Assembly: GCA_963734545.1 (NCBI GenBank)
Contig: CAVTHO010000010.1
Location: 96,001 to 160,000, forward strand
Reading direction: 5' to 3'
Length of the DNA stretch: 64,000 nt
Source: an uncultured Spirochaetota bacterium
Lineage (GTDB): Bacteria > Spirochaetota > Spirochaetia > SZUA-6 > Fen-1364
This document shows positions 1-36,813 of this stretch, one piece after another (the first letter of the stretch is position 1; each line of letters begins with the position of its first letter). A program made the translations under genes and the position numbers. The notes below the pieces were generated by a model, which was not told the DNA's origin, searched no databases, and saw only the letters and a program-made list of their open reading frames with translations.

Positions 1-1
1 A

Positions 2-3000
2 AAGAATGCCGCTCACCATTTCCGTCGCTCCGAGGACCCTGGCCTGCTCCAGGGTGAGCCCGTCGAACCTGGAATAGGTGGATGCGGCCGTGGCCATGGG
101 CACAGCGGCGGGCAATGTCACGGTCATCCTGAACCCGGAGAGGAACCGCAGGTCGAACAGCTTCTTGTAGTGCAGGTGATCCATGATGGCATTCAGGCGT
201 TCGGTATCTGTCAGGTCGCCCCAGCCCTTGTACTGCGTCTCGCCGTCGTCCGTGCCGGAAATCACCCTGTCCACGAGACCGGTATGGAGCTCCGTGTAGG
301 TGTGGGCGGTATAGAGCTGCACGTCCTGCACCGCTGCGGCTCCCTCCACGGTCAACGCCGCGCTCATCGCCCCTCCGCCCATCAGCGACGCGGGCACGTA
401 CAACGGCGGGTTCATGACTCCTCCCGTTGTGCCCGCCTGAGCGTCAAGAACCACGGCGTCGAGCGCGGCCCCCTCCGCCAGCGGACGGCCGAGGTCCAGG
501 ATGAGGCCGGAGTAGTTGATGACCTCCGCTATCGCGTAGAGCAGGGCTTCATCCTCCACCAGGAGCCTGACGCCCGAAACCGGGTCCCGCATGTAGACAC
601 TGTCCGTGTCGGGATGGTACTTGCCCGGCCAGTCCAGGTCTGCCACGTGGAAGTCAATGCCCTCGATGAAGTACTCCCGGAACCGGTTCGATTCCGCGAC
701 GCCCGCCCAGTCTGACCAATACCCATCCTGGACGAGCCGGGTTTCTATGGAGGCGAACTCGCTGCCGACTTTCACGTCGTCAAAGCCCGTCTGCTCCGTC
801 GTGAGGGTGGGGACCCAGTGGACGACCGGGCGCAGGATGTACCCGGCCTCCACCATCCGGTATCCCGTCACCACGTCCTTGTAGACGAGCTCGTAGGTCA
901 CGTAGGGAGGAGCGAAGGAGAGATCTGCATTCATCGTGTCGTCATATGCCAGGAGGGACACGACGCCCGGGGCCTGCAGGGTGATGTTTCCGCTGAGCGT
1001 TCCTGGCCCGTAGCCGGCGGCGATCTTTCCTTCCTGGGAAACCACGATGCTCCCGTCAGCCTCGCTCTCCCCGGCCTGAACGGTCACATCACCCGCCGAA
1101 AGAATTTCACCCTGCACCAGTACATCGCTTCCGGCATGGAGGGTGACGGCGCCCCCCGCTTCCCCGACGGAAATGGTGCCGTACACCCCGATGTTCCGGC
1201 CGGTGAGCGTCACGTCCGCCCCTGCGGCAATCAGCGCGCGGAAGTAGTAGATGAGGCTCCGGGCGATGTAGATGCTGCCTTCCCCTTCTTCCGCACCGGA
1301 AGCTGTCAGGGAGACCGAAGAGCCGGATCCGCGGGCGATGACCACGCTCTCATCCAGCGCCCACACGTTGGTTCCGGTGACGGCAACCGCATGATGGGCG
1401 TTGGCCAGGGCGTCGCCCCTGAAATAGATCTCGGCGTCGCTCTCCAGGATGACGTCCTGCACGTCCACGGCAGGCAGGGACGTGGTCTCGTCCAGGTGCA
1501 CGCGTCCCACCATTCCGAGAAGCTCGAGATCCCCCGCGCCATCGATCGTGATTGTTCCGCCCTGTCCCGTGTTGAGGAGGCCGCCGCTCTTCCGCTCCGG
1601 CAGGCCTGCCACGACAAAGCCGGTTGTGGCCTTTGGCGCGAGGCCCGGCTGCGCGATGCCGTCCTTGAGGCTCCCGTCTTCATTGATGAGGGAGCCATAC
1701 TGGTTGATCCGATTGCCCCCCTGATCGAGGCGCAGACCGTCTTCCCCGATGACAAAGCCGGCTTCATCGAGGAGCTGGCCCGCCGCGTCCACCCGGTAGA
1801 AGCGGCCGCTGGCCTTCTTCTCCATTCTGTGTCCGAGCTTGTCCACGAATTGGAGGGCGTGTGCGCTGTCGTGGGTGATATAGACGGGCGTGGCCCCCAG
1901 GACCGGGTTTCCGCCGGTGCCCTCGACCAGGACAGGCAATCCATCCGCATCGACCACCACCCGGCCCTCCGCGTCGGTGGCGATGAGGAAGCCGGAATCG
2001 TTGATGAGCTGACCGTTGGCGTCAACCGTGAAGTCGCCCCAGGACCCGGCCGTGGTCTGTACCCGCAGGGTCTCCGTCACGTTGAGAAGCTTTGTCAGCA
2101 GCACGCTCACGGGCGATACCGAGCCGGCGTCAGCCCCGGTCAGGTGGAGATTGTGTCCCGCCTCGACGAACCCGCTGATTTCCAGAAGACCATGGCCGGA
2201 GCCGATCGTCACGTCCGAACCAGGATCCAGGGACTGGATGATCCCCTTGATCACGGCGCCGTCTCCGACGGCCAGGGTGACTCCGCTGGGCGAGCCGCCG
2301 GCCAGGACTTCCGTCCTGATAAAGCTCTTCTCGTTCAGGGAGAAGAATGGCGCCGTGCCGCCGGTCACCGTGATGGACACCAGGCCTGTTGCCTGGGCTG
2401 ACCCTCCCCACGCCAGCGCTTCTCCCGCCGCGGCGGCGTCTCCGTTGACCACGTCCAGGTCCGTGGAGGTCACGACCCCGCCAAAAGTAACCAGGTCGGA
2501 AGCGACGATGGTTATTCCGGCGCTGCCGGCGGTCCAGCTCAGGGCAGGCTCTTCTCCCAGATACGTCCTGCCCCGCTCGGCCCCCGCGATAAGCCCGCCC
2601 AGAACATCAACGTAGTCGGCTTCAAGACGAATCACGCCGCCGCCCAGGCGGGTCCTCACTTCGCCGGCCCGGGCCACGAGGATCCCGCCGTTCCCGGCAA
2701 TCAAGGCCACCCCGCTGGACGCGACGATCGAGGCTCCCAGCGGGTATGTCGCCCCGGGAGGAAGTGCCGGATGGCTTTCATCCGCCGTGCCCGTGGCGCC
2801 GGCGACCGTGATGGCGTCCGACAGGATCCGCACGTTCTCCCCGGCAGCGGAGAGGAAGGTCCGGTTCTCCGTCAGGAACTCGAAGGTCTCCACGCCGCCG
2901 GCCTCGATGTTCCCCTGGATAAGGACCCCGGTGGGTGCGGTGATGAGGAGAGAGCCCAGGGCGTCCAGGTCTCCGGTGGCGGAAATGGAAACGGAATCCC

Positions 3001-6000
3001 GGGCAGCAAGGACAACTTCGAAGTTGTCGGCGGTTGGATCACCGGCCGGTTCAGGGGCTGTGACGCCGGCGTTCTTCAGCACACCGGAAATGTCCAGGTT
3101 CTCCGCTGTCAGCACGATCCGGCCGTTGGTCTCGATCCAGCCGGATTCTTCGGTGACCGCGATGTCCGCGTGCAGGGAGGTGATCCGCACGTCGCCGTTC
3201 ATCCGGGGCTCGTCGTTCTGCAGGGAGCCGATGGGGCCGTCGACGATGACGTGATTGTATCCAACAATCTCAATGGCTTGAGAGCTCGACGCCGGTCCCG
3301 TCGTCTTCAGATACCCCGTCGGGTTGAGGACGACGCTGTTCCCGCTCGCGCCGGAACCCGCCGCAAGCCCGGCTTCGATGTGGACATTCCGATCGGCCTT
3401 GATCCGGCCGCTGATGGTCAGGGTGTCATTGGCGGTCAGGATGACGTCGCCCTCAGCACCACCGGCCGTGAGATCTCCCTTCAGCTCCCCGGTGTCCCCG
3501 AAATCGAGGACGATGGGCCCGTCCACCGTCTGGAGGAGGCTCGACCAATCCAGGTCCAGGAACGTCGCCGGCCCCTTCACCATGGAGATCTGGTGGTTCG
3601 ACAGGACAGACCCGGCGATGTACAGGGTGCCCACCGGGTTCTCCGGCGTTCCGAACTGGACCTCGGATCCGGCCGCGGCGGCGATGATGTTGAACGGCCG
3701 CGATGGAACGGCCACGGCTCCGCCTGCCACGGCGTCCAGGCCCAGGAGCTCGGCATGATGGCTCTGGAAGCCTGCCCCGCCGGACGGGTTGGCCGCTGAA
3801 GGCAGCACCTTGAACAGGTACTGGCTGGTCAGCAGGATCTTCCCGTTCTTCAGCTTCACCCTGATCAGGGGATCGGCGGCCCCGCCCGTGGTGACCGGGT
3901 CGTCGGCGAAATACCCCGGCTCCAGGGCGGTCCCGTCGAGAGCGTAGTAGTCGGCGCTGTTGAGCGCGTTCTGGATGTCCATGAGAAGGTCCATGATCCG
4001 GCCGTTGGAGTAGTTGTCAGTCGTCGCGGCCGCGGGAATTGTCACCTGGCCGACGATCTTCCTTTCCCCGAGGCTGATGAAGATGACGAGCGTCACGTCC
4101 TCGGGCAGCACGCCGGTGTTGGACGACCTGTTGGCGAGGATCGTGTCGTTGGGCATGCTCGTGAGGCCCAGGAGGTCTTCATGGACCGAGCTGTACTCGA
4201 TCTTGAACACTTCGCCGGACACGAAGGCTATTGAGCCGCCCATTTCGACCGCGCGGATTTCGGCCGGCATCACGTCGTTTACATCCGCCACCAGGTCGGC
4301 CAGGGTCGAATTGTCCGCGGCTGCCGCCGCCGGCACGGTGACCGTGTACTCGGAGGGGATCGTGCCCAGCACCCGCAGATCGAGGACTACGTCCCCGGCC
4401 AGCCCGCGGCTGGGAGGCAGGACGGCTTCCGCGGCCACGACCTGCAGCGGAACCGAGAGAACCGCGGAGACATCCGTCCCCGGTGCAGCGGCCATGCCCA
4501 GCTGTCCTGCCTCGAGGGAGTCGTCACCGATGACGGAGAAGGCCCGATTGCCCGTGAGCAGCAGCCGGTCGCCGCTGTTCCCCACCACGATGAGCTGGCC
4601 GGCGTAGGAGCCGGTGGGCACTCCGTCGTGGAACACAGGGGCCGCCACGAAAGCGGTCTCGATGTCCAGCAGGAGGTCCGCCCGTCCGGCGTTCGTGGCA
4701 GTGTCGGCCTGCCGGACGATGACAGTGGCCGTGAACCATCCGCCCGCCCCGTCATCCACCGCCAGGGCCAGCGTCACGTCTGCCGTGAGGATACCGGACG
4801 CGGGGAGGTCGGTCGTGCCGGTTATCTCGAAGCCCGGCGTCTCCAATCCTGAAGTCTTGATGCCTGCCGTGAAGCCGAGCTGGTCCAGGTGATCGACGAG
4901 CTCCACGGTCAGATGGAACACGCGCGAGCCGACGAGCACCACGACGCCGCGCCGATCCTGGGCCGTGATGTAGTCCCCGAAGTATTCACCGGAGAGGCCG
5001 GGCACCGGCGTGGCTGCCAGGGCATCGTTCAAGTCGCGCACCAGGTCGGCGATCCCGGCGTTTGCCGTGGTGCCTGACTGGGTCCCGTCCGTGGCCCCCT
5101 GCAGAACGATTACATCGCCGCCGAACGTTCCACCCATGCCGTCGTCGAAAGTGAGCTCCATTGTCAGGTCCGCCGAAAGCCTGCCGTTCACCATGCTGTT
5201 CAACGGGATGATCCTCTGGGTCGGCGGGGGCCGGACGGCCAGTTCTTCCGTCACACCGGCAAGCTCGGTCAGCCCGAGGAGATGACCATTCACCGAATCC
5301 CCGACCAGTGCGAAGGCCCGGGCGCTCGATATCACCAGCGTCCCGGCCTCGTTCAGGGCGGAAATCTCCTTGAACCCGCCGCGGATAAAGGCGAGGTTGA
5401 GATCAGCCACGAGGTCGTCCAGCCCGGCGTTGTCCCGCGTCTCGTCCCGGGAGAGAACCACCCGGCCCGTCGCCACTCCCTGGCGCTCGCCGGTCACGGG
5501 ATCCGCGGCCGGCAGGTCGGGATCCAGGGTCTTCGGGTCATCGTTGGGATCCACATTGGACATGACGATTGAAAGCTCCACGTTGTCCGGCAGGACGCCG
5601 GTCGTGGACAGCGGATCGTGGGGGACAACGTCGAAGATGGACGGATCCCTCACGGACTGCGAAACGCCGCCGGCAGCCGCGAGGGAAAGGCCGAGGAGGT
5701 CCGCGTTCTCCGACAGAGGATTGATCGCGATATCGAGGGTTGCGCTGGCAAGCACGAGGGTTCCGCTCACGTACCTTGCCGTGATGTCCAGGCCGGCAGC
5801 CTGGAGGGCGCGGGTGATGTCGGCTGCCAGGTCATCGAGCCCGGTATTGGCCGTCCCGTTCGTTCCGTCCGTGTCCCGGCGGCTGATTGCCACCAACGAG
5901 GAAATCATCACGTCAGCCGAATCCACGGTGGTGATGCTGAGCGTGACGTCCTGGGCCAGGATGCCTGTCGTGGGAACGGGCCGGGCGCCGACGAGCTCGT

Positions 6001-24000: not shown

Positions 24001-26575
24001 GGTTCTGGATGTTCACGAGGGCCGCTCCGGCAAAATCCCCGGCCTGCAGCAGCCCTTCGCTCACCAGGTCCCCCAGCGCCACCACGCCCGAGGAGAGAAG
24101 CTCGGTCAGCGACAGCTTGTCCAGGCCGATGCTCCCCAGGTTCAGCAGCCCCTGGTCGAAAAGGCTCCCGAGCGAGGTGACTCCGCTGCTCAGGAGATTC
24201 TGCAGGTCCACCAGATCCGTGGTTTCTATCATGCTTGTCAGGTCGATGCCGTAGTCGGCGAGCCTGGCCGCCAGGGCGTTGATGTCGCTGACAAATCCCA
24301 GCTTCGCGATAACACTGTCATAGGTAACGAACCCGGCATCCACCAGGTCCCCGAGGGTGACGAGCCCGGAATCTATGAGCTCATCCATGTCCACCGTGCT
24401 GCCGTAGGAGGCCAGGCTCCGTGTGCCGATGATCCCCGCGTCCGCCAGCGCGTTCAGGTTCAGGCCGCCCCAGTTCGCGACGGATTCAGGAGAGAGCAAC
24501 CCCAGCTCGGCAAGCCGGGAGAGGGTGACGAATCCATGGTCAAGGAGGTCATCCATGTCCACCAGGTCGCTGACCTGGACGAGGCCTTCCTCGACCAGGA
24601 GGTCCACGTTGACCCAGCCCAGGGCGTCCAGATCGCGAAGCCCCAGCTGGTCCAGCTCAACGTCGAAAGCCAGGGGAAGAGTGAGCGCCTGGGCGGCAGG
24701 ATCGTATGTGGCGGCTTCCCCCGACTTGAGGAGACCGGACGCATCCACGGCAGCCACGAAGTCCTGGAGTGTCTCGACGCCCTCGATATCGAGCTTCGAG
24801 AGCATCGCCGCTTCAAAAGCCGCGCCGAGATCAACCACCTCGGACAAGGAGCGGCCCAGGAACGGCACGGCGACGTCGAGCCCGGCGGAGCCGGCAGAGG
24901 CATCCAGCCAATCCAGGAAATCCGCGATGCCGCCAACTGCCGCGGAAAGGTCGAACCTGCCGAGGCTCGCAAGCTGGGCAAAGTCTCCGGAACCTGTGAT
25001 GGCGGGATCAGCCCCGCCGAAGAGCGTCCCGCTCACATGGATGGTCGGCCGCGCGCTCCCGCCGCCCGTGACGTCGGCCTGGTCCGCCAGTGCCGCGTAC
25101 ATCGGGAGGACAACGTCGAGGGTGTTGGCGGTGAGGCCAAAGGGATTCGACGTGACTGCGCTCGGCGTGAATACGAATTGATCTCCGCTCAGCGCAACAT
25201 CACCGCACACGTTCAGGGTCGCTGTTCCCAGGGTGCTGCCGACGCCTCGTCTCCCGACACTCGTCTCCAATGTTCCCACCCGGGCAGCGGAAAGCAGCTC
25301 CGTTGCACTCGCCCCGGAATCAATGTGCAGCCCGGTGAGGATGAACTGCGTCCCGCCGCCGGCCAGGTCCACCTGCAGCGTGAAGTCCACGTCACTGTCT
25401 CCGACAATCGGAACGGCGATTGTTCCTGTCAGGTCCAGCCCCAGTGCCTCGCCATAGCGGCTCAAGTCAAGGACAAGCTCTTCGTTCTTGATGCTCAAGT
25501 CCGTGCCGGTGAAGTGGATGCTGAGCCGGCCGTCGCTGACCCCTACAGTGATTGTCTTCGTGCTGTTGGAGAGGGTCGGGAGCCAGTTCGTTTCCAGATG
25601 GAGCTTCAAGCCGCTCAAGGTGGGCACGCCGCCCGTTGCGATGTAGTCACCGGCCGGAAGGAGACCGGCCGCGGCGCCCTCCCCGGCAGGATGCAGATAA
25701 GGTCTCAGGTAGGATTGAACGTAGTCACCGATGGACAACAGATTGTCCATCTGGGCCAGCTCGCTGAGGGAGAGACCGACCCCCGGGATCTCCCGCGTCA
25801 AAGCCTCGTCGCCGCGCGCATTTACCCCGAGGGCGGTCACGAATTGCCCCAGGGACTCGATGTACGTGGCCATCCTGGTCAGTCCTATCTCAGCCGGCCG
25901 GAACTTGACCACCAGGCTCTCGCCGACAGCCGGAATGACCTTGACGTCCGCGGAAGGCACGGCGCTGCGAACGGACAACGCAAGGGACTCGTCCTTGACC
26001 AGGACCTGGGCTACTGTTGCCCCGCCGGCTCCCCCGCTCAAGGCAGATATGAAGGACGCCTTGACGGCGGCATCGGTTACGCCAATCGTCTGGAATTCCA
26101 CGGTCAGTCCGGGCTGGGACTTGAACCCCGCAAGCTCGTCCCCCGCAGAATCGGTCTGCGCCAGGCTGCTGACTCTCAGTATCGTGGCATGGTACACCGT
26201 CGCTGCTGCTTCGAAGGCGCTGTTCAGCCAGTGCACACCGTATCCCGAAGCGCCGGCGCTCACGGTATGGCCCGACGGCGAGATGGCAACCCAACGGGGA
26301 GCGTTGACGTGGTTGAACCACTCCACGGTCAACAGGGCGTCCAGCGAAAGCCTGTACTGCGAATAGTCGGTGGGGTCAGCGGGGAAATCCAGCTGAATGC
26401 CGATGGCCCGCTGGAACGCGGCAAAAGAGGACGCTGTCAGGTCCTGGAAGATGCCGTCCACCTCGAGGAAGTTCCCCTGGTGGTCCCGGTACCCCAGGTA
26501 GTTGAGCCTTTGCTGGATCTTGGCGACCTGGAGCGGGGTCAACTGAGAGATCTGCTCCGGGCCGTCGATGGCCAT
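2..26575 (-). CDS. Giant secreted/surface repeat protein, main body (at least 8,858 codons, 3' end beyond the window start); RTX and haemagglutinin-like adhesin
   Basis: Manual translation of the minus frame from ATG 26575 (MAIDGPEQISQLTPLQVAKIQQRLNYLGY...) to the window edge (...HLHYKKLFDLRFLSGF...). The ORF track has no minus-strand ORF in this frame anywhere in 1-26.6 kb, as expected if no stop occurs. All long plus-strand shadow ORFs (170, 818, 2771, 6359, 9098, 15215, 17294, 18764, 20966, 22463, 24536) are in register with it. The nearest upstream in-frame stop is TAG at 26648-26650. Confidence 0.93.
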   Translation of the reverse strand, partial: MAIDGPEQISQLTPLQVAKIQQRLNYLGYRDHQGNFLEVDGIFQDLTASSFAAFQRAIGIQLDFPADPTDYSQYRLSLDALLTVEWFNHVNAPRWVAISPSGHTVSAGASGYGVHWLNSAFEAAATVYHATILRVSSLAQTDSAGDELAGFKSQPGLTVEFQTIGVTDAAVKASFISALSGGAGGATVAQVLVKDESLALSVRSAVPSADVKVIPAVGESLVVKFRPAEIGLTRMATYIESLGQFVTALGVNARGDEALTREIPGVGLSLSELAQMDNLLSIGDYVQSYLRPYLHPAGEGAAAGLLPAGDYIATGGVPTLSGLKLHLETNWLPTLSNSTKTITVGVSDGRLSIHFTGTDLSIKNEELVLDLSRYGEALGLDLTGTIAVPIVGDSDVDFTLQVDLAGGGTQFILTGLHIDSGASATELLSAARVGTLETSVGRRGVGSTLGTATLNVCGDVALSGDQFVFTPSAVTSNPFGLTANTLDVVLPMYAALADQADVTGGGSARPTIHVSGTLFGGADPAITGSGDFAQLASLGRFDLSAAVGGIADFLDWLDASAGSAGLDVAVPFLGRSLSEVVDLGAAFEAAMLSKLDIEGVETLQDFVAAVDASGLLKSGEAATYDPAAQALTLPLAFDVELDQLGLRDLDALGWVNVDLLVEEGLVQVSDLVDMDDLLDHGFVTLSRLAELGLLSPESVANWGGLNLNALADAGIIGTRSLASYGSTVDMDELIDSGLVTLGDLVDAGFVTYDSVIAKLGFVSDINALAARLADYGIDLTSMIETTDLVDLQNLLSSGVTSLGSLFDQGLLNLGSIGLDKLSLTELLSSGVVALGDLVSEGLLQAGDFAGAALVNIQNLISGAAVQLNDLVREGLIAASDFTPSTLLPVSGILSRGVATLTELVKKNLVQAADFADATLSTASLVAAGLATQFELDYKGLNNSGSVSLHALAASGVITLEELIGAGFVSAGNLTLSQLSLSSLLGSGLTNVAELVGESLLNVSALATESLDLGAVLGSGLAGIDDLVNAGLVGISALNIEDIDLSALVDSGLADLGDLARSNLILPAEVLLDKLRTSDIMAKASSLFTAITAHGGLIGPGSIIDLGALLEQSPITLSQLVYFQILTHDNLRPLGEADKAALLSSRVIDKSMTTRRSIPEIVSAGSLTMGDLVDQGLLERGRLADLPAADLRLFGFDRTITEQLDGLGFIRHGDRVTAALLLANTSVTMEDLVRVGLITVNDLNDDLPEVLLADLFVQGSLDRQALLESDLLELALLDGLVTQDSAGNDVVAVSDLLSGSLLTMEDLVSAGLVTADDVDLSAATITVDDLLAAAKVSIRELEQNNLVQEGEGGAPDYVRVSDLLALDMVSLHELARGPPSALPLLVPTLPLPDLLTSDIVARNALSTLGYGDSGPIDLETFLAENLVSIDALVEKGLVDPAQFYKQSAVSLWQLVHAGLVDAGDLAANGHVPLEKLLDSGVVGKKYIVEQDLVGTDGFVSLEDLLADSHVTLASLVDCGLLSRQDFVNKVFEQSDLEGSAHFTDGQFDGIVHLGTVPLSTLLSSILYDLTLAEYVGYEFVGLDDFVDVGLNAADIETAFAVDVPDTLGAAVPVRTLVALDLEGVTLLSLIRRDFVDAADLADPGMGLDIVKLEESVLFENGDLNNYISAHQVFLYDVLETIYLGDLIDWGFLNPGDLIIRHGAELPQLVDQGLVGKSRFNNKALSPAALTGSGLVTTAALNALGLIRPDGMVSLQALLGSGLVSLKGLVADGLVGFGDLSRSVTARSLDDVASSRMFDRAILQEAAVITGAGNDEVLLNGAGSLLSLGLAGFSDLVKAGVVDPSYLGASATVDKDALLDQELVSLRSLAAHGLLVSADLKTPSFSLNELGDRGLLNLNDLDSLASFVSLGLVGDAEVDSHALQYFGLNGAALDLSGDYGLDLVGLRTTALADLLVEVSGQLDYVVDFDGETGGPTEGELTYSVDAASLTRSVSFEVTDFEAAGRLGFVGVTLGYAPGSLVRVNVSQTLVPDQDGDLATAGDRQFLISSLSGLDVASILHGAVTGEAQATLLGIKVNTGIGGIPASDDGGVTLMVSDLARARTAPGYMTLDLTNLPAAFTFYQYLHIEDILSMILRARDYAFKAFDRLPFWVTDPNSPIYDAFKDLRIPLIDKSPREILAFIGMMNDAVNAVERELYNPENDIQKLIGLILNKLGLNFETAGAVFAVFMEGTVLRLRFKLEEDVEESTPFNFDLGLFKGLVGGSLPGLEGIDDLVALEGSGTVRVSAFARVRIEAGIDLGPRASGGSADKFLYDWNDAEQTGTRVDAGFKLLAENLDLSFSIFDSIGLSVTAGTMTMDADGDASTNPEATDPADRSDFVTIAFVLDPADPLSDGRFHFATENLLDNVQFAGVNGGLEVVLPLTLDVFGTVIPLSPDLSIRTNPLYQGSINTGLEEVFRHIVNLNPGPYDPVIITTPDIAGALGNLADSVIRGLLEDLAGLIRGLKQDLLGSGFFDLTIPGIDRDLNSFFGAGNGIEALLDIDTHVFAYLDTVSWIGPGSVATGDVTPADIWNGLASFLTAHWVPTLPGISTGVGGDFLTVTMAGSHLGISFNGAYSFADVVTLAIAENLGGVGLALDAEVDLAVSVSTALRFDFGVDLSTGEFAFNFDEFKFSGSFSAPDIEIGLGYEAIDLHTNHAGRVEIELGGSVTFDAGAFSFNHQEDKAHNAFQNRVLVFLPLYASVGGTGVALGSIGFGDTDLYDGELSPGFTADLREIGGILNDLAFAALDLLGDQILDLKDQFITRYDNRGNVVAEGNAFLNKTIPGTDSSLVGLLGLDNLLQLGQYIKHYLRPYLTTGTFERDLSIPLGQEEAGNPEKDFYSAGGPTIGGLFTYLEKYWLPSLAGGNGLLAWEPQRNASDAIVGVSVTFDAASTYQRTMGINLGEPAQTIGLVLDGDAQVNLVLAMDLSLSFSFNWETDEASFSINHLTFQGHASVDDLVLGAAIGPLDISIGKADGEKGNLSLDLGATVSYHESAGIDFAPTMNSAGTRNNYIEVDLPVFANLGGVSFGDPRAPPRVGLSGTLFPEAGGPSLALTHENLESLLDFSDFNLGSLIAMIQNTLDWLESVSGSDFMSTEIPIVNKTLGDIFDFATTFNEQVFSRIDLARINTVQGFVEEFTRAGILPAGLDAVYDPATRSLHLPVDFNFLLNSFNLRNLNNLGRADFAKLLELGAINPSQEFDKDVLLDGLLNLPLVKLRDLAQWDLITADSFAPATSLSISSLESLKLVSPGALTGSTISLSALLSSTAVKVRLTDLLDADLVSATSLKTGLKIPYDALIASRLMTGADLLKLHVSLYATKPDGSLALTTELQQADWVDMTALTGLKLYSLSDLIDMSFIGGSEFTNVSLAVADLVGKGLIGAGVIPESSINLVDLLASDTLGVTLADLIGAGLLGRSNLSDLDLVEAGKLSFDGFDLYELVDVGLLTQSDVASFEVDLFNIKGLPLNLGFDLGDVLELGTSAVADLKVTVEGGFEWIVDFDGLTGSEGLSVLINNAHVSGRASLDLENLAFFARLGFVSLTAGGPGTGSGVHLLARATLTLDADGNLATENDRTFSLLDLVSGDLIDALDFDFEGYAQAKLKGLAVEPEIPLLDTSALAGKEISLTIPDLTEWSNIETVLDTEYNQAQFDQWIAAKHVVLVLPDFGSSFGFKDLSFENIIEAIRSGVQFIEAALKETPFYEQEIPIINRRVSDAFNFVDNLLNKLETAAENPAAAIQEVEVIIEDALGIHDNNSLAPDQQVFSLSLADMTVLKLHIEWDKVLSDILSEDMMNVSFSFNLGDIIGMFTGSTGTGWGFIDELVSAGADISWDAFVEMVVDVGIDFGDIENGNVDFFLFDFEDQGNSSPADDTGTRVTIGLKVEGTNLELLFQPFGIGVRGGSAYLGRLTYGAGGAFYTEGAVVTAVDFATFTLSINQRSGPVADDGRFHFLDEGILDNLDYDLKGGFDILLPVEIPGLFDLDPVHVYTNAAPSPAGYGEQALLEVFRRLAGSPTGTVDAVIVVLPNLELPDFSLLSILNDPGYILDGVDFALGAVQDVLGSNLAVDLPIVGNKLAQAATFIRDLRLGFLAELRAKLERPGAAIQYIRDAIWDVFGPSGLDIVLDGNGDGRIDISDIMVGWYDENGNLLKAWVLGDEVPQESDGYDSDADAIQFEVSLGGIVFGTGVDIPLDIDLPGFGLQVDGGFAVQMSWTFDFGMGLSLADGFYLVTNDTHNPGDPEIEVEIGAFLDGKPLDNAVVTPFVAEGVLLFFKVTARDADRDPAKDGFQPSGLFGFLSIDVSGEPGTGRLTFNRLLSTPMDDLFNVNLGVDATLKLDLILEIEGAKGLPRLRADLVANWGWSLDDGAQEPEIGLNNLRLEVGSFISDILKPIVDKIADILEPVGIVVDILLTPVPGLDVLVDPPCLLGLINKIASLFGYPEMPPAFLYAVQNMIDLTLTVDKMLGTNGDILLGNILGLGTDHPSAVQAENSLVSDFKSFLDDIKNMSLGGETIQTGAGGGTISEQRSGFEIIDYLTDIGNWMKLLTGGDATLLTYEMPLLGYELSFLQQIASITAGPVVINVYGKGGFRITADLGFGYDTYGIRRAIQTGNAWEAFDGFFISDYSLSGDNKGKEKDELTFGIEIGVEASIWALVVEAGLGGDIGFEAGLDLQDINDDGKIRVSELITMWNYTGYDAPGGLLNLFNLHGRAYFEAYVFVDVGVSIPFVGKIMKRVVDWEIFDITLAEWEYKAPKVQPVLAHEEAGTLILHTGKRAGDREYLDTTDGGEKFTVTGDASAITVEYGEWSHRFPESGTGSFTKVIADGGAGDDVFNASGLVGVSVEFDGGEGSDKLTAGNAGGILIGGPGDDTLAGLGAGTTGDMTLDGGPGNDRLTGGAGNNTMSGGAGDDRLTSLGGDDILDGGSGVDSLSGGDGADTYVFATDFGEDTFRDAQGVTVLDFSAVTTGLTVQINKTGITVATAGVELKAGRSNVTRIVLGTGNDIVTIKEPPERVIEIEDAGGASTITFELGRQTSTKADGTIRLLDNDTAFDELILRNIPGIQPNDTLPDILEFNDHEIVSGREIIQFTDGLEQVTLPVEESEIDAAGVTTTHLRDLTIVSTNGPAGVVMGATDLVVTARNLTVEPRLDGDSFVFTAVEDVILNGTVHATGDFDITADSVGTSATVVNGVADAAGTIAHRIDAHDLDWIIRVSGLVVTVPINAINNGRLDIHTANNALPSDIDLRADITSGSGDNSDNLGGGTIKLVAEGSLYMRNNMRFLGAGTHLIIAADDILNYSTGSVNTIITTVAGITVFTRDEGAVAGSEIVIEETDSLVVYGVPVADVPALNPAGLSSAHGIITVTLNGVGARLTLHTGSIITRAPGMDITLTADDFDFLSAPYERDPDPARARGGVIGTGRLFLKAMQATDFILGTAAEHELGNDWTYIHDTYPGFTNFPAHVGGNFTGEGLEATYNNDGSLFANTVHLSTRDLSAIKEGFTLITIGEDYADPLALNPTERMTFGDAMNAAVVKYDGRPRVRDSSFRDDVILNARRIYIEGEVQACATPGQPPVTLEVNTDRLHIKSKNINNPLGGTDSGITGDLLVLDGVRNRMIVDGWLRTNGSIYVNIQGDGESYVSPMMSSVEDDTRRLNNVIQGVAGTIETLLDGGVIEIITKNSVVLEGHTIVRGENARITILPGTFFELVQIAGVISSRDAESLIHIEAPEAVYINGEILAGVEWQGGVKALTGPGADVVIRTPHELRIYGAITSSDVMDLRGAVDQDWNDRDPVSASIHLTGQLMSLADNSLLRLEGPDDIIIEGSIFVRGKGAGLLIDSGQRVKFATSFVEVEDGINVYGRGETRDLDLDLVSSVLVEATAVITSFQNGSDVHIWGAKDVDIFGTVVAGGSIGPCGVIWSGTDSDIVVAAGEQVYLDSGLLASDSVTVTGGAAGPDDVSLGSEGGRVSVIINTAGGITSAGRTSDGSHGLVSLYGESGVEMMGHIYSGASKSLLLDAEGNLIKESVDFDTSVGGDVRIESPGQVFIGGWTRNMRSQVQLAEDVTLFFQDGEGTLLGSITLTKAQTKNNASLAQLRDQLSAALSGMAGGVIDIQIRNSRLVFVAENPFAITADSVHQDLLGLAGGELEANETLPGSSRYEIQALYSLFGDILVTGGYITAKDNIELRNVDTAAHPFIAGEIGVRIQGASEITTRRDYSLISIVAVNDAEIEGHLIAGGEVRNIRDSETGGYIGSELLDFGTAASHTAIRIAAGHQVRIGTVVRAGGLIELTGGDDPAEGDPADPFNFTNVSVLIYGSALVETWGENGRVVLSGPDPIKVLTPTHFYEIEPDTWVKGPLARIVGESDFLLGGVLPVPVTLDLWKRVDGVETTATVLIPGMDVRTEYPVAPDVGIIVHINGLLDASASFGDLDVSWLGRSILIDAPYDFAILPSSRNLDLLGLAPVLSSVIYYLPAEIEADEPLPTGGRLAADVTLDIRMEDAGGTVVDAPSVLITAASTLDNAGLDDLVDDVNAALDAGPFAPINAVLRAGKLVFTSLGYQFEIEKTSQNVNLLGMRYEWETAETRYEAILEAESAAPVTGQLVRDVTLVIRIEATDLEDVLLGAVVVPAAATTDNTTLPELASDVNDALASTLIPRYETEGLHFSHYVSAGIRDGKIVLTGDSAFKIKRASRNVALMGFTPGEDLEAVELFHDARVVADTELDSGVLATGILGGDVTLALAINRLGESSSGSFIIASDGARTGAADLLLDVNADLLLAGFGDIRATLEGNRIVFSSLYDFTIENTSVSAGLLGFTTVSGGAALDSARAPSVHELVGARPVPTTGILAQDVTLSITTVDSADVMISSLVAISRRDTDGTNGTANTGLDDLAADITRALQAAGLDITARYVSGTLVLASATLDIAINPLSENADLLGLSLAAAGGVSQSVRDPSIFDVVPHDPLSTTGVLPDNVELSIVMSNVDPNDDPKTLDPDLPAADPVTGERQGVATGRVVLSRDETRDNAGLDDLVADLNLAFIRGGFKEISALNEAGTLVISSARAFALVGDSVNGHLLGLTELAGVTEELAVRPPPTQRIIPLNSMVNGRLSADLTMELTFDDGMGGTFGGDVIVLQGATDGTQSGTTANAGIADLVRDLNDALAATPVPGLSGEYFGDYITAQDRRGVVVLVGSRVFHLTVELVDHLDQLGFTAGIKTSGLETPGFEITGTTDLPASGILTADVTLALAVDDGAGGWFTATVIVRQADTATNAGRADLLLDIETAFVAAPVFHDGVPTGSYAGQLIVVGNSGDRLLLTGNRAFSVIGDDSLEAGQLGMAAAPGTDVSAVLSVPLQVVAAEAVLPPSRGLAGDVVLDLRVLGTIPSEYTVTVPAAAAADNSTLADLVADVNDVMPAEIRAVEMGGSIAFVSGEVFKIEYSSVHEDLLGLTSMPNDTILANRSSNTGVLPEDVTLVIFISLGERKIVGQVTIPAAATTDNYSNGRIMDLLMDIQNALNSADYYALDGTALEPGYFADDPVTTGGAADPLIRVKLKNGKILLTSQYLFKVLPSAANPSGGAGFQSHHAELLGLDAVAGGAVAVPSRPFNIIAAAAGSEVQFGTPENPVGTLYIAGSVLSNHQISMVKGPATFLDLDWSSLLQTVDGPIVLDFGDTGELKGDLTAGGAEGDVILTANDTLTISGRIKADRNVHIEAGLAAGSGASGNSVVLNPTGYLKTTGPASSSQAIEIVGYNHVIVDGPIGSLQNDEPRMNGDVRITSLHADIAVTEESGWIETNGRIVLTAENLDISGVLKNAGVTAPEPAGDPTADNFEVVLAARDSVSISATGDLDALGSLLITAPTGVLIQGNIEAGGVETFEFLTENRTFLSAAGENVRILSDAITVAGATGTADESHPALPPGATYPLGASIVASSGVALIAGNGGILVARAGEVRTRLGGGVIRLEADYVDVLGGLIAGAERGRTYLGEEPALSWTAGSAGITIVASDLVTFGGVVTSTDLDVVNGDAAAAGEALAWGGSAQATGLVSITVTGGTAPFFSLNEKSFIRTEVLAGGSPSGVTLAVGDGAVIKGIIQSLDPGSDVTIGSGHGLLEISGFVEAGHNLHLTGADAGSVSPVSVLLTKLLNVTETLRVQTTAGSWGDFTVDANGQLINDSGFLIATDAEGRVVVDADGLPVLVEGTGGNPVLGATPVYITHDSAHALQFVDKLGHRMEKKASGRFYRVDAAGQLLDEAGFVIGEDGLRLDQGGNRINQYGSLINEDGSLKDGIAQPGLAPKATTGFVVAGLPERKSGGLLNTGQGGTITIDGAGDLELLGMVGRVHLDETTSLPAVDVQDVILESDAEIYFRGDALANAHHAVAVTGTNVWALDESVVIARGSGSSVSLTASGAEEGEGSIYIARSLIYYFRALIAAGADVTLTGRNIGVYGTISVGEAGGAVTLHAGSDVLVQGEILSAGDVTVQAGESEADGSIVVSQEGKIAAGYGPGTLSGNITLQAPGVVSLLAYDDTMNADLSFAPPYVTYELVYKDVVTGYRMVEAGYILRPVVHWVPTLTTEQTGFDDVKVGSEFASIETRLVQDGYWSDWAGVAESNRFREYFIEGIDFHVADLDWPGKYHPDTDSVYMRDPVSGVRLLVEDEALLYAIAEVINYSGLILDLGRPLAEGAALDAVVLDAQAGTTGGVMNPPLYVPASLMGGGAMSAALTVEGAAAVQDVQLYTAHTYTELHTGLVDRVISGTDDGETQYKGWGDLTDTERLNAIMDHLHYKKLFDLRFLSGFRMTVTLPAAVPMATAASTYSRFDGLTLEQARVLGATEMVSGIL
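3735..8310 (-). repeat. About 11 protein-level repeats of ~100-130 aa in the giant ORF (flagellin hook-IN-like); approximate bounds
   Basis: Recurring pattern GxLxxDVTL...DNxxLxDLxxDxNxAL...GxxVxxS...SxNxxLLG(L/F/M), e.g. GRLAADVTL/DNAGLDDLVDDVNAAL/SQNVNLLGM and GLAGDVVL/DNSTLADLVADVNDVM/SVHEDLLGL. Confidence 0.8.
11670..12010 (-). repeat. RTX Ca-binding nonapeptide repeats (about 8-9) in the giant ORF
   Basis: GGAGDD, GGEGSD, GGPGDD, GGPGND, GGAGNN, GGAGDD, GGSGVD, GGDGAD read in the minus frame. Confidence 0.9.
16100..16950 (-). repeat. Short Leu-rich micro-repeat array B (LxxLxxxGL[V/I/L]); approximate bounds
   Basis: e.g. VADLVGKGLI, TLADLIGAGLL, LYELVDVGLL. Confidence 0.7.
20800..24650 (-). 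repeat. Long Leu-rich micro-repeat array A (dozens of ~11-aa LxxLxxxGL[V/I/L] units); approximate bounds
   Basis: e.g. DMDELIDSGLVTLGDLVDAGFV, SLGSLFDQGLL, ALGDLVSEGLL, TMEDLVRVGLI, SLWQLVHAGLV. Confidence 0.8.
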
Positions 26576-26591
26576 GGCCCCGGTTCTGGAA

Positions 26592-29552
26592 TCAGCCGGA
26601 CAACACGTCGAGGGGGACCCTCGTCTGGCTTTCCCCTGTCCCGTAGACTATCCAGATCCGTCCCTGGAATCCCGGGCTGCTCGCGCAATCGTCTCCGGGC
26701 AAGCCGTCCCGGACGCCGGGAGCCAGATAGAGCATTCCGCTCGTTGCGAAATCCACCGGCAGGTCCCAGTCGTTTCTGTCCGCGAAGATCACGTAGCCGA
26801 AGTTCACCGTTTGAACGGTCGCCGGATCGATCACCGTCAACGTCCAATCTCCGCGGAGCGGGTTTTCGCTCCTGGCAACGGTCACGACTTCTATGCCGCG
26901 CATCACCTCGAATGCGAGCTGCGTCTTGTCAAAGCTCGTCGCGTTCGTGCAATCCGACAGGTCGATCGGGATCATGTCGCCGGTCCGGGGGCCGTTGTCC
27001 GTGACGATCAGGCGGACACCCGGCTCAAGGGGCGCGGCCATTACGGCCAGCTCACAGCTCGCGCCAAGACCCAGCACAACGCCCATCTCGCGCATGACGA
27101 CCGAAAGCAGATCAGGGCGATCCATGGCGTCGGTCCCCTGGCTTGCCCTCAGGGCTGTTCCGAAGGGCTGGAGCGTAAACTCCAGATCGTCAGCCGGGGT
27201 TGGATCGACGAACCAGCCTGTCTGGCCGCCCCAGGGATCCAGCCTCACGCGACGGGCCGCTGCGTCTGTTGATGCAAGATCGTCGCCCAGGGCGGCGATC
27301 TGGAAAGTCACTCCCTCCAACAGCGTCCGAGGATCGGTTCCCGAAGGTCTGAAGGCACTCCACCGGTTGATGGCTTCCGCCACGATGGGGGAAAGCCTTG
27401 CGGCATTGATCGCGAACATGAGCCGCGCACACTGGATCGACGTCCCGGGGAGTTGTACGAGCTCCCCTGCAGCGTCGACTCTCACCACCTCACCCGTGCC
27501 GGGGACCCCGCCGAGGCCGGGCGCTCCGCCGCTGCAGTCGACATTCCCGCTTGTGATCGATCCGCTGTGGCTCGTCAGCGTGACCGCGCCCCCGTTCCCT
27601 CCGTTGATCAGCGGATCAACACCGTCGGTTCCGTTGGCCTGGATGTCGCCCTGGAGGAGCATGTTGCCGGCAGATTCCAGCGACATGTCCCCCGCGTGTG
27701 ACCCGTGTCCGACGCCGACGGTGCTGAGCACGGAACCGGCAGAGAGCGTCAAGGTGGTTCCGGCGTGGATGCCGAGGGTCTTTTCCGGAACCGCTATCGA
27801 AGCCCCGATAACCACGGAGCCCGCCGCGGCAATGTCGACCGAGCCGGTGCTGACGATGACTGCCCCCGTGTTGTCGAATTCCCCGCTCGCAACGGTTATC
27901 CCGCCGTCGGAAATCGTCAGGACCGTGCCGTTCAGATCGATCTTTCCCGATGCATGGAGATCGATATCGTTCTCGACGCTGAGCGCCCCCATGACGACGT
28001 CTCGAGCCGTGGAAACAAGGAGGCCTTCACTCATGATGGCGCTCGCATGGATGTCGTGCGCCGTCGATGAAAGTGACAACTGGCCCATGACAATGGCCGG
28101 CGCGTTCAGGACGATGTCTCCTGCCGCGGCCAGCTCCACACGGGTAAAGCTCGCACCGAGATTCCCCAGACCGCCGTCGAATCGAATCCCTGCGCCGGCG
28201 CTGGCCAGAAAAACGGTGGAATCGTCCGCATCCACGGACATGAACACAGCGCTGCCCTGCGCCTGCACCTGAACGATCCCTTTGACGAGCAGAGGGCTGC
28301 TGATGCTCAGGTCGCCGACGGAAGTCACCGTCAGCCCATCCGGGTCATCGAGAGACAGTCCGCCTCCGGTCACGGGCAGACCGAAGGCGTTTCCCTGGAT
28401 GACGAGCTGATCGGCGCCCGTGCCGGTCTTGATCGTGAGAGACTGCAGGTCCGCGGCAACAAGCCCCGCAGAGCTAATTGTTATCCGGTCATCTCTGTTG
28501 ATCAGAGTGTCATTGAAGCCAGAGTCGATGGTCATGTCGGCGATATTGTAGAAGGTGACGGACTCGAAACTGACACCGTTGATGGTTCCCGAAATGCGGT
28601 TATTGAAGGTGTTGAAATTGCCCGGCACGCCGGCCCCGCCCGGGTTCACGTCGATAATGAGCTCGTCCACGCCGCTGCCGTAGTCCGAGGTGAGAAATAC
28701 ACCAGGGGATTCGCTGATATAGGTGGGTTCAAGGCCTGCCAGAGAAATGGCGCTCGAGCGGGCGCCCTCGCTCAGCAGCATGCGGGCGCCGTCACTGCCC
28801 ATGGGGCTGTAGGAAACAGTTACTGCCGGGTTTCCGTCAAAGGAAAACGAGTCGAAACACCCCACTCCGCCGTCGTAGGAGATCCCGGCCGGCAGCCAGA
28901 AAGGATCCGAGAAGTCCACGGTGAGAAGATCATCCCCATGGTCGCTGCCGATGATCATGACCCCGTCGACTTCCTCCAGAAGGCAGCTCTCCAGGAGCGA
29001 GCCGCTGCGGGTATCGAATAGCCCGAGAGTGCGGGAACCGCTCGTCTCCACACGAAGTGTCAGATCACTTCCGCCATCCGGAGCCGTGTAGGACAGGTAT
29101 GTCAGAGCAGCCAGCGGCGGGGGAGCCGATGCGTGAAGCGCTTCGACCAATTCATCTGCTTTCGTCAGTTGCTCGGGCTCGATCGAAGCGAGCGCGTGCG
29201 ATGTATCCCCGACCACCGTGCCCTGTGACGCAGCGGGCTGCTGCTGCCCGAAGACTTGAGCTTCAGCCGTCAGGTCGCAGTCAACGCCCTGCGCGGGATC
29301 GCTGTCACCGGGCGCCGCAGGCGGACCAGCGGTTTGAGGGGACGGGGCCAGAAGGTCTGGCACGCTCGCTTCCGGGGCATATGAGAAATCGGCGGTCGCG
29401 CCGGCGCGCGTCGTTCCTGCGGTATCAAACACCTGTTCGGCGGCGAGGGCGTCTATCGGGATGGGTCCGGCAGGCTGATCCAGGATGCCGTTGACAGAGA
29501 GGAGGAGTCGAGGCTCCAGGGCCTCCAAAGTAAACTTCCTATCGCTGCCCAT
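26592..29552 (-). CDS. N-terminal part of the giant protein (LEPRxLL motif, 986 aa); probably the same gene as 2..26575, split by a +1 frameshift
   Basis: Starts MGSDRKFTLEALEPRLLLS (LEPRxLL motif at 29496-29519). Gly/Ser-rich beta-helix-like segments and a DLLSVVMREMGVVLG motif. Stops 16 nt before the next frame's ATG, with no clear Shine-Dalgarno there. Confidence 0.88.
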   Translation of the reverse strand: MGSDRKFTLEALEPRLLLSVNGILDQPAGPIPIDALAAEQVFDTAGTTRAGATADFSYAPEASVPDLLAPSPQTAGPPAAPGDSDPAQGVDCDLTAEAQVFGQQQPAASQGTVVGDTSHALASIEPEQLTKADELVEALHASAPPPLAALTYLSYTAPDGGSDLTLRVETSGSRTLGLFDTRSGSLLESCLLEEVDGVMIIGSDHGDDLLTVDFSDPFWLPAGISYDGGVGCFDSFSFDGNPAVTVSYSPMGSDGARMLLSEGARSSAISLAGLEPTYISESPGVFLTSDYGSGVDELIIDVNPGGAGVPGNFNTFNNRISGTINGVSFESVTFYNIADMTIDSGFNDTLINRDDRITISSAGLVAADLQSLTIKTGTGADQLVIQGNAFGLPVTGGGLSLDDPDGLTVTSVGDLSISSPLLVKGIVQVQAQGSAVFMSVDADDSTVFLASAGAGIRFDGGLGNLGASFTRVELAAAGDIVLNAPAIVMGQLSLSSTAHDIHASAIMSEGLLVSTARDVVMGALSVENDIDLHASGKIDLNGTVLTISDGGITVASGEFDNTGAVIVSTGSVDIAAAGSVVIGASIAVPEKTLGIHAGTTLTLSAGSVLSTVGVGHGSHAGDMSLESAGNMLLQGDIQANGTDGVDPLINGGNGGAVTLTSHSGSITSGNVDCSGGAPGLGGVPGTGEVVRVDAAGELVQLPGTSIQCARLMFAINAARLSPIVAEAINRWSAFRPSGTDPRTLLEGVTFQIAALGDDLASTDAAARRVRLDPWGGQTGWFVDPTPADDLEFTLQPFGTALRASQGTDAMDRPDLLSVVMREMGVVLGLGASCELAVMAAPLEPGVRLIVTDNGPRTGDMIPIDLSDCTNATSFDKTQLAFEVMRGIEVVTVARSENPLRGDWTLTVIDPATVQTVNFGYVIFADRNDWDLPVDFATSGMLYLAPGVRDGLPGDDCASSPGFQGRIWIVYGTGESQTRVPLDVLSG

Positions 29553-29586
29553 CTTTCATTCACTTTTGGATTGGCAAACTTGATCT

Positions 29587-29615
29587 ATTAAATCCCCGTG
29601 CCCCGGTCCTGTCAA
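29587..29615 (-). promoter_or_regulatory. Sigma70-type promoter of the giant protein gene
   Basis: Minus-strand TTGACA (29615-29610), 17 bp, TTTAAT (29592-29587) in an AT-rich intergenic stretch, 35 nt upstream of ATG 29552. Confidence 0.7.
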
Positions 29616-36803: not shown

Positions 36804-36813
36804 ATCCCCCTCC

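Follow-up and report, generated by a model that had tools for sequence, protein, structure and literature searches.

How proteins of at least 1 MDa are exported across two membranes is understood for few routes, namely the type I secretion of RTX adhesins, two-partner secretion and type IX secretion. The question is raised again by one end of a 64,000-nucleotide stretch of DNA from an uncultured Spirochaetota bacterium (assembly GCA_963734545.1, contig CAVTHO010000010.1, positions 96,001 to 160,000; hereafter the window), where a minus-strand frame stays open up to the window edge and is preceded by a shorter open reading frame (ORF) that begins with the LEPR-XLL motif. A preliminary description had taken the two together as a single hidden gene for an RTX surface protein of at least about 9,850 amino acids (aa). 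Here, we ask what these frames encode, whether they are one gene or two, and how their product might leave the cell. The reading that we favour, as a probable one, is that the two frames, ORF A and ORF B, jointly specify a single exoprotein of the LEPR-XLL family that is giant, acidic, poor in cysteine and calcium-binding, that a stop codon followed by a change to the +1 frame divides its gene at a linker, and that its export is leader-dependent and proceeds from the N-terminus. The most interesting point is the leader-dependent route, which we infer from synteny in alphaproteobacterial plasmids.

Two coding frames and the junction between them

ORF B runs on the minus strand from an ATG at 26575 to base 2 and comprises 8,858 codons with no stop in 2..26575, so that the 26.6-kb open frame first noticed in the sequence holds on translation; measured from stop to stop, the frame is open from 26647 (8,882 codons). 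Over 100 mononucleotide-shuffled versions of 1..29552, the mean length of the longest run without a stop was 297 codons and the maximum 541, and the natural logarithm of the probability of meeting no stop in 8,858 codons, computed from base composition, is about -237. ORF A (26592..29552, minus strand; P0001 among our proteins) has 986 aa including the stop and begins with MGSDRKFTLEALEPRLLLS; it cannot start further upstream because an in-frame TGA sits right before its ATG, and it was also found as a 986-aa protein of a 217,059-bp contig in the protein collection. The GC content of third codon positions (GC3) is 84% in ORF B, 74% in ORF A and 78-83% in neighbouring genes. ORF A and ORF B are both genuine coding sequence. 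Inside the window their products amount to the mosaic of about 1 MDa that had been proposed: 100.6 kDa with a pI of 4.05 for ORF A, and 927.1 kDa with a pI of 4.18, 5 cysteines and 1,204 aspartates plus glutamates against 477 lysines plus arginines for ORF B. Neither contains a transmembrane-like segment, as no 19-residue window has a mean hydropathy above 2.0.

The giant gene had indeed been overlooked by the ORF track, because ORF B stays open at the window edge and open-ended ORFs were switched off; a list made in this way omits ORF B and offers antisense shadow ORFs instead, the longest named one being 9098..13843 on the plus strand (1,581 aa). Plus-strand shadows of up to that length, 9098-13843 and 24536-27004 among others, overlie the giant gene (1-29552). 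In these two, as is usual for antisense shadows, the excess of GC falls on the first codon position (0.90 and 0.75) rather than the third, and a track of closed ORFs would therefore annotate them wrongly.

The LEPR-XLL motif lies at residues 7-19 of ORF A (29496..29534, minus strand), with LEPRLLL from residue 12, where the NCBIfam model NF012209 'LEPR-8K' scores 17.9 bits against a cut-off of 17; we take the '8K' in its name to mean an average length of about 8,000 aa. This confirms the LEPRxLL-initiated 986-aa ORF of the preliminary description. The motif occurs once in the six-frame translation of the window, and ORF B has none. An alignment of 33 N-termini gives the consensus LE.LEPR.LLSA, with motif starts at residues 12-54, a range that includes that of ORF A. 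Since ORF B also has homologues among motif-bearing giants (see below), both the motif and the body place the gene in this family: it is a new member of the LEPR-XLL family, which is named by annotation pipelines and apparently unstudied. We found no experimental study of any LEPR-XLL member in the literature, where the name is mentioned only in passing.

At the A|B junction (26576..26594, minus strand), the TGA of ORF A (26594-26592) is followed by 16 nt and then by the ATG of ORF B, in the +1 frame relative to ORF A. The two ORFs lie in different frames, and thus the figure of about 9,850 aa is the sum of two ORFs (about 9,844 aa) rather than one literal chain. A relative that spans the junction is P0180, a single chain of 3,186 aa with LEPRILL at residue 25: its residues 1090-1219 align to ORF A 857-986 (34% identity) and its residues 1233-1367 to ORF B 4-141, so that the aligned blocks stop at 1219 and resume at 1233, on either side of a linker. 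Because P0180 is continuous here, the stop and the frame change lie in the inter-domain linker of an ancestrally continuous protein, and ORF A and ORF B are a single ancestral architecture that was split at this linker. In addition, among 187 retrieved proteins, a LEPRxLL-like motif at residues 12-54 (first 120 aa checked) was present in 32, every one a single chain of 2,598-7,745 aa, and in 16 of these 32 the motif shares its chain with the family core (at least 600 of 951 core positions). The family trait of a motif and a multi-thousand-residue body on one polypeptide is therefore absent from the present locus: in this assembly the giant gene is two ORFs, and only ORF A bears the motif. The giant coding frame of the preliminary description stands; its single gene does not.

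What does the split mean? One possibility, to which we would give some but limited credence, is gene fission, after which A and B are separate co-translated proteins, A being a 100-kDa leader-bearing exoprotein and B a leaderless megaprotein that is either cell-associated or exported via A or a C-terminal signal. The stop falls cleanly at a domain boundary, the ATG 16 nt further on opens straight into a PG_binding_1 domain (residues 16-61), the A frame is homologous to P0180 throughout its end, the collection holds A as a protein of its own, and the 26.6 kb of ORF B are free of stops. On the other side stand the unbroken chains of all 32 motif-bearing relatives; moreover, a search with ORF A for proteins of near length returned only itself (at greater length there was one match, P0043, covering ORF A 1-406 at 36% identity), and a reading of the sequence before ORF B shows no clear Shine-Dalgarno element. 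If the split is real, the leader is carried by ORF A alone.

We give the same limited credence to the view that the junction reflects a recent pseudogene or an assembly or sequencing artefact in what is, or was, functionally a single ORF of 9,844 aa or more. Ahead of its ATG, the B frame continues without a stop for 24 codons, overlapping the last 18 codons and the stop of ORF A, so that a single +1 shift there would join the frames, and the break-up of the relative L001 into four suggests that assemblies of this family are commonly broken in this way. Against this, the junction is the sole break in 29.5 kb and falls exactly in the linker, with GC3 and homology intact on either side; the A frame remains homologous to P0180 up to its last residues and no homopolymer is present at the stop, which makes a simple sequencing slip not obvious. 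These two observations, together with the plain separation of ORF A from an ORF B that has an ATG of its own, also count against the single product that we favour. Programmed +1 frameshifting was considered and dropped, as no slippery or prfB-like context was seen on reading the GGC-TGA site.

Relatives and domain anatomy

The homologues of ORF B share 44-68% identity with it overall. Residues 1-5000 match four proteins of 5,906-6,204 aa (P0003-P0006) at 44-54% identity over 76-89% of the query; P0003-P0005 start with the LEPR-XLL motif, and P0003 and P0004, with the motif at the start of both, reach 53-54% identity over 89% of that segment. P0009, a 7,008-aa 'LEPR-XLL domain-containing protein' from a Methylocystaceae metagenome-assembled genome (MAG), is a more distant relative. 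A scan of genomes for related loci returned two, on contigs that both end inside the gene. L002 (Phycisphaerae bacterium SM23_30, LJUC01000038.1) has a single 6,534-codon ORF, open at either end, whose product is collinear with B 1002-6816 (48-52% identical); in L001 (Gammaproteobacteria bacterium RBG_16_51_14), the match extends over B 945-5248 and identity rises to 68%. Long collinear homologues therefore exist, and none is characterised. By its best segment (68%), L001 (1-14201) is the closer of the two, and its break-up into four ORFs over three frames means that it has either decayed or been mis-assembled. Another relative, P0007, is annotated as an 'OmpA family protein' of a Desulfuromonadales MAG and carries PF00691 (precomputed), which we read by eye at about residues 500-600. 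Its N-terminal ~2,000 aa are wholly different, with BNR/sortilin-like repeats by reading of the sequence.

Judged by such matches, the family appears to span Phycisphaerae, Gammaproteobacteria, Desulfuromonadales and Methylocystaceae MAGs as well as leader-bearing giants of alphaproteobacterial plasmids, and the view of LEPRxLL giants as a trait of Planctomycetes is too narrow. Among the 187 retrieved proteins, 53 match at least 600 of the 951 core positions (RTX part excluded) and 16 match 200-600. Searches of 1.84 billion representatives with the core gave 88,420 matches at E<=0.001 and 3,413 at E<=1e-30, numbers that are inflated by RTX repeats and are not a family size. In more distant giants, the core is accompanied by Calx-beta, SdrD-B, cadherin-like, PKD, FG-GAP and dockerin domains (precomputed Pfam; core overlap), company that fits an extracellular life. 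A separate, distant case is a 3,083-aa 'putative Ig domain-containing protein' on plasmid alpha of Nostoc sp. PCC 7120 (L004 19431-28682), which covers 66% of the non-RTX core at 27.8% identity and is flanked by NACHT, NB-ARC and P-loop NTPase genes, not export genes.

The only recognisable parts in about 9,844 aa are the LEPR-XLL motif, one PG_binding_1 domain and one internal RTX block with eight repeats. In a tiled Pfam scan (25 tiles), only PG_binding_1 and HemolysinCabind exceeded their cut-offs, leaving more than 97% of the residues without a Pfam family, and PDB sequence searches of all three pieces found matches confined to the RTX block; most of the protein is thus as unassignable as had been suspected. 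Ribosomal_L27A (24.8 bits, 0 stretches), RAMA, Baseplate_Tube_p140, SprB and FlgE-D1 also surfaced in the Pfam and NCBIfam scans and were set aside as compositional or sub-threshold matches.

Within ORF A, residues ~354-689 (27486..28493, minus strand, as are all features of the two ORFs) are beta-rich repeats weakly like filamentous-haemagglutinin repeats (Fil_haemagg, 19.0 bits against a cut-off of 21.5, sub-threshold) and, in weak internal BLAST matches, like ORF B 5168-6135 and 7642-8541; their fold is a prediction. The C-terminal domain, residues 857-986 (26595..26984), is the one that is 34% identical to P0180 1090-1219 and has no Pfam family at E<=1. The idea, from reading, of a degenerate metzincin site in the VVMREMGVVLGL stretch was dropped, as ORF A 640-986 matched no Pfam family at E<=1.

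ORF B opens with PG_binding_1 (Pfam PF01471, residues 16-61, 26393..26530), in a region conserved in P0180 1244-1288. The domain scores 25.8 and 24.3 bits (cut-off 23) when ORF B 1-260 or 1-600 is scanned alone and 21.8 inside a 4,500-aa piece. Together with the PF00691 domain of P0007, it suggests that modules for peptidoglycan binding are a recurrent feature of the N-terminal parts of such giants.

Self-comparison then reveals a duplicated X-R-Y supermodule, in which X1/R1/Y1 is mirrored by X2/R2/Y2 at 28-30% identity. X1 (~244-640, 24656..25846) is 28-30% identical to B 2798-3200 and has no Pfam match; R1 (~620-1900, 20876..24718) is a ~1,280-aa run of Leu/Asp/Gly-rich repeats whose period is 11 residues; and Y1 (~1831-2520, 19016..21085) is the first copy of the second duplicated domain, 28-30% identical to B 3409-4106. 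The second set comprises X2 (~2798-3200, 16976..18184), which is common to P0008-P0013; R2 (~3190-3420, 16316..17008), a short second run of 11-residue repeats by self-comparison and autocorrelation; and Y2 (~3401-4106, 14258..16375), delimited by self-comparison and relatives. Hydrophobic autocorrelation in R1 peaks at lags 11, 5, 16 and 22, and R1 and R2, which share the 11-residue hydrophobic period, make up about 1,500 aa of repeats without a confident fold. An AlphaFold model of B 1003-1402 (R1; 8-row alignment) consists of strings of 6-residue helices, and it gave no fold match at E<=0.001 (Foldseek against the PDB) and no usable Atlas match.

The conserved family core (B ~4107-4850, 12026..14257) is modelled as a helical bundle with long antiparallel beta-hairpins. 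The AlphaFold model of B 3900-5000 (29-row alignment; predicted local distance difference test (pLDDT) 77.6, predicted template-modelling score 0.50) contains the helical bundle and the RTX roll as well as a beta-sandwich and eight hairpin strands, each 15-22 residues long; in Foldseek searches against the PDB it was matched convincingly at the RTX roll only (probability 1.0 to the CyaA RTX), and against BFVD it met viral proteins only at template-modelling (TM) scores of <=0.14. The single internal RTX beta-roll (B 4857-5025, 11501..12007) holds all eight GGxGx[D/N] motifs, at 4857-4968; HemolysinCabind scores 41.5 bits, and its PDB sequence matches are the CyaA RTX, AlgE R-modules and serralysins.

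Beyond the roll, the beta-rich region ~5026-6384 (7424..11500) has no Pfam match, is weakly similar to ORF A 354-689 and B 7642-8541, is conserved in P0003, P0004 and L002, and includes an isolated ~80-aa copy of the following repeat domain at ~6090-6170. That domain forms an array of ~11 repeats of 102-139 aa each (~6385-7640, 3656..7423), with the motif ..DN..L.DLV.DVN.AL....G.LV.TS..F.I.....N..LLGL. The ~120-aa repeats match nothing in Pfam even at E<=5 and yield only 'hypothetical' clusters in the Atlas; a likeness to Flagellin_IN, found in 22% of the members of one Atlas cluster, was kept as a lead only. A second beta-rich region (~7641-8500, 1076..3655) has no assignment and aligns to P0009 3800-4797 and to P0010, and a conserved domain (~8501-8858, 2..1075) is cut by the window edge, beyond which the gene goes on. 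The tail of ORF B aligns up to residue 4797 of the 7,008 of P0009 and residue 4613 of the 5,597 of P0010, so that ~1,000-2,200 aa remain in those relatives. A search of the protein collection with B 1-5000 found no full-length self-match of 4,871-15,502 aa, although the self-match of ORF A was found. Thus, the gene runs well beyond the window, and its product would either exceed 15,502 aa or lack a call as a single protein in the collection.

The pI values of 4.05 and 4.18, the 5 cysteines in 8,858 aa, the RTX roll, the lack of transmembrane-like segments and the domain company of the core all speak for an extracellular protein. A canonical RTX adhesin of the LapA, MpIBP or FrhA type, exported C-terminus first by an ABC/HlyD/TolC type I secretion system (T1SS) and held by an N-terminal retention module in the outer membrane with its fibre outward, would share much of this. 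Like LapA, MpIBP, FrhA and SiiE, the window protein is of megadalton scale, repetitive, acidic and cysteine-poor, has no Sec-type hydrophobic segment, carries a calcium-binding beta-roll and is likely a surface fibre; PG_binding_1 at the start of ORF B would suit a periplasmic anchor, and the C-terminus and the downstream genes lie beyond the window. In contrast to these adhesins, its sole beta-roll lies inside the chain and not at the C-terminus, as at least 3,833 aa follow it, and the full-length P0009 also has core and RTX region in mid-chain, ending near residue 2,588 of 7,008. Ig-like (BIg) extender domains were found neither in the 25 Pfam tiles at E<=0.1 nor in the two AlphaFold models (B 3900-5000 and 1003-1402), and no Pfam or NCBIfam match to a retention module appeared in ORF A or B 1-600 besides PG_binding_1. 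No ABC/HlyD/TolC trio is present in 29.6-64 kb, where all ABC genes are of the sugar-import type, and the family has a conserved N-terminal motif that is not a known need of RTX adhesins. We therefore consider a canonical RTX adhesin unlikely, and the earlier label of an RTX surface protein exported by a T1SS overstates a block of ~170 of at least 9,844 aa. The features of two-partner secretion (FHA/CdiA) are also missing: there is no Haemagg_act match, and Fil_haemagg reaches 17.6 and 19.0 bits against 21.5.

We regard as very improbable a giant protein for intoxication or effector delivery (of the RTX cytolysin, MARTX or contact-dependent type) whose hairpin-rich core inserts into a target membrane. 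In its favour, some of the eight hairpin strands read as amphipathic, the weak Foldseek neighbours of the core are outer-membrane barrels and gasdermin-type pores, and the wall of another cell could be the target of PG_binding_1. Those fold matches, however, fall short of significance (TM score <=0.13, probability <=0.6 outside the RTX part) and were not treated as evidence; the NCBIfam RTX_toxin model NF033943 reaches 57.4 bits against a cut-off of 1,000 and on repeats only, and no hydrophobic helices or pore region of the HlyA/CyaA kind are present. Domains of an acyltransferase, an effector or a protease appeared in neither the Pfam nor the NCBIfam scans, and the Pfam scan of 28 neighbouring ORFs named no HlyC-type acyltransferase.

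A candidate leader and candidate export genes

If the product is an exoprotein of neither kind, how might it be exported? A tblastn search of plasmids with the non-RTX core gave eight distant matches, one of which is an annotated LEPR-XLL protein of Thalassospira marina (WP_101286450.1, plasmid pCSC3H3; 4,033 aa) that matches B 4071-4980 (core and RTX) at 27% identity. It resembles the window protein in its N-terminal LEPRxLL and, as does the giant of L002, in its great size, acidity and general lack of Pfam domains; the window gene differs in that the motif is on a separate 986-aa ORF and in that ORF B has a much longer array of 120-aa repeats and PG_binding_1. The T. marina giant is followed by genes for DUF3467, a 622-aa HlyD-type membrane-fusion protein (MFP), a 730-aa M50/HlyD fusion, a 287-aa MFP and a TolC-family protein. 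The 730-aa protein has a Peptidase_M50-like region (24.7 bits, cut-off 27.2) and HlyD-like parts, and an ABC ATPase gene is neither listed in the cluster nor fits between its genes.

With the 730-aa fusion as a probe, the plasmid search returned 79 records, 26 of them at >=80% coverage, and we inspected ten plasmid loci obtained in this way, all alphaproteobacterial. A giant ORF lies directly upstream on the same strand in 9 of the 10, the tenth locus being 1.3 kb from the start of its circular record. The giants are annotated at 4,033 to 12,918 aa, and two unannotated ones measure ~9,000 and ~11,500 aa, each pieced from two stretches. Seven of the eight giants that were read carry xEPRxLL(S/N)AD at the N-terminus (IEPRILLSAD, LEPRFLLSAD, LEPRVLLNAD, LEPRLLLSAD, MEPRVLLSAD, LEPRYLLSAD and YEPRLLLSAD); ORF A has the same xEPRxLL leader in ALEPRLLLSVN, with SV where the cluster-linked giants have SA or NA. 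Save for the T. marina core, the plasmid giants show no BLAST similarity to ORF A or ORF B. The feature that they share with the window gene is therefore the leader, a pattern expected of a secretion signal and its machinery.

The fusion proteins keep an intact HExxH in 8 of 8 cases, each with several transmembrane-like segments, and the sole one scanned from the further loci (L016) matched PqqD only (24.1 bits, cut-off 23.4). PqqD-like domains are leader-peptide binders in the pathways of ribosomally synthesized and post-translationally modified peptides. In all six loci scanned, the gene after the fusion encodes a truncated SecA paralogue of 638-674 aa with SecA_DEAD, SecA_PP_bind and P-loop_SecA (L005 21080-23104, L006 20219-22135, L007 20165-22123, L011 12031-14037, L014 22177-24138 and L016 22112-24097); these genes are annotated inconsistently, as 'SecA', 'DEAD/DEAH box helicase', 'prepilin peptidase' or 'hypothetical'. 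SapC is encoded in two of the plasmid loci and TolC in two. The long MFP of the L016 cluster (18114-19970) has a GAF domain ahead of its HlyD-type part, which hints at small-molecule control of the exporter.

We found no published description of the set of PqqD/M50-MFP fusion, truncated SecA, MFP, TolC and DUF3467. Two reports describe systems that share parts of it. The giant epibiont proteins Cag_663 and Cag_665 of Chlorobium chlorochromatii have haemagglutinin-like beta repeats and no known signal, and are encoded beside sapC and tolC [10.64898/2026.03.19.712371]; genes for SapC and TolC are found among those of the plasmid clusters too, a parallel of gene content, and in the passages of that report available to us 'peptidase' is mentioned nowhere and no LEPR motif is reported [10.64898/2026.03.19.712371]. 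Giant proteins of Omnitrophota embed the SecA DEAD and preprotein-binding domains without the scaffold and wing parts [10.1101/2023.11.21.568195]. The plasmid clusters encode the same three domains in stand-alone paralogues, whereas the available text on Omnitrophota places SecA domains within the giant chain, describes nearby secretion genes as type II/IV-like and does not contain the term 'LEPR' [10.1101/2023.11.21.568195].

These observations are consistent with a model in which the product of ORF A and ORF B forms a fibre at the cell surface or outside the cell, in which extracellular calcium supports the folding of the internal RTX roll and perhaps of further parts. The LEPR-XLL motif would serve as leader and export would begin at the N-terminus; the fusion of PqqD-like, M50-metalloprotease and MFP parts would recognise and cleave the leader, the truncated SecA-like ATPase would be the motor, and further membrane-fusion proteins and TolC would form the conduit, with DUF3467 also in the set. 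The N-proximal PG_binding_1 would tether the base of the fibre to peptidoglycan, as is suggested by its score above the cut-off and by PF00691 in the related giant P0007. In the relatives, the giant gene comes first and the export genes follow it downstream, on the side of ORF B that the window lacks; in the source genome they would sit there, beyond the window. A calcium-stabilised surface fibre with a peptidoglycan-tethered base is, as far as sequence can tell, the most likely function, and adhesion is plausible. A bolder proposal, which we put forward only tentatively, is that LEPR-XLL is the leader of an undescribed envelope-spanning route for megadalton proteins, that A/B is a substrate of such a system encoded just past the window edge, and that the core and the 11-residue arrays are new folds of the exported fibre.

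Besides the state of the junction, several points weigh against the exoprotein with leader-dependent export that we favour. Localisation, calcium binding, leader cleavage and adhesion are all predictions. One of the eight giants, that of Alisedimentitalea, has no motif at its annotated start; the link to SecA-like and M50-MFP genes comes from alphaproteobacterial plasmids only, and the T. marina locus shows no SecA paralogue within 40.8 kb. The 34 kb upstream contain no exporter gene of any kind, and four cluster proteins used as tblastn queries gave no match in the window, L001 or L002. In addition, the 11-residue repeats were modelled with low confidence only (pLDDT 50.6), and PG_binding_1 lies ~1,240 aa from the N-terminus in the fused relative and could equally bind another cell's wall.

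Upstream genes and meaning for the LEPR-XLL family

ORF A is separated by a 134-nt AT-rich spacer from the gene for a WYL-domain transcription regulator (HTH_11, WYL and WCX by Pfam; 29687..30640, minus strand), which lies directly upstream on the same strand and may or may not regulate the giant gene. The promoter proposed for this spacer, TTGACA-17-TTTAAT (29587..29615, minus strand), is weak evidence. Read directly, both hexamers are present (TTGACA at 29615-29610 and TTTAAT at 29592-29587) with a 17-nt spacing, but a consensus promoter scan of 26300-30800 did not call the pair, because the -10 hexamer carries T, not A, at position 2; its sole match was on the other strand, one found against 0.8 expected by chance.

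Beyond the WYL regulator come an APH-family kinase gene and then genes for sugar use, with no ABC exporter, MFP, TolC, SecA-like or M50 gene; Pfam and tblastn thus agree with the preliminary description that no secretion genes lie upstream in the window. Positions 33310-63998 form a carbohydrate-use region that includes a D-lyxose isomerase, two ABC sugar-import sets, a LacI regulator, a gluconolactonase, an HpcH aldolase, a GH78 alpha-L-rhamnosidase (45601-48405), a GH43 xylosidase (50815-52350) and a 613-aa ORF (43793-45634) that joins a xylose-isomerase-like TIM barrel to a zinc alcohol dehydrogenase. Four sizeable minus-strand ORFs in the sugar-utilisation neighbourhood (31917-33278, 34063-36714, 36800-38191 and 52840-54993; 453, 883, 463 and 717 aa) matched neither Pfam at E<=1e-4 nor NCBIfam at E<=1e-3. 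Scans of the window for tRNA genes and Rfam families gave 0 and 0.

For the window itself, the annotation is corrected: the giant gene is two ORFs, the antisense ORFs are shadows, and RTX is a minor internal module. For the family, the wider meaning is that LEPR-XLL proteins are widespread, annotated by name and apparently unstudied, and that the window member has no Pfam match over more than 97% of its length. The co-travel of the N-terminal motif with the PqqD/M50/MFP fusion, the truncated SecA, the MFPs, TolC and DUF3467 is a concrete and testable lead. Should it prove true, the motif would have its explanation, and the known secretion mechanisms would gain one for which culturable Alphaproteobacteria offer a test.

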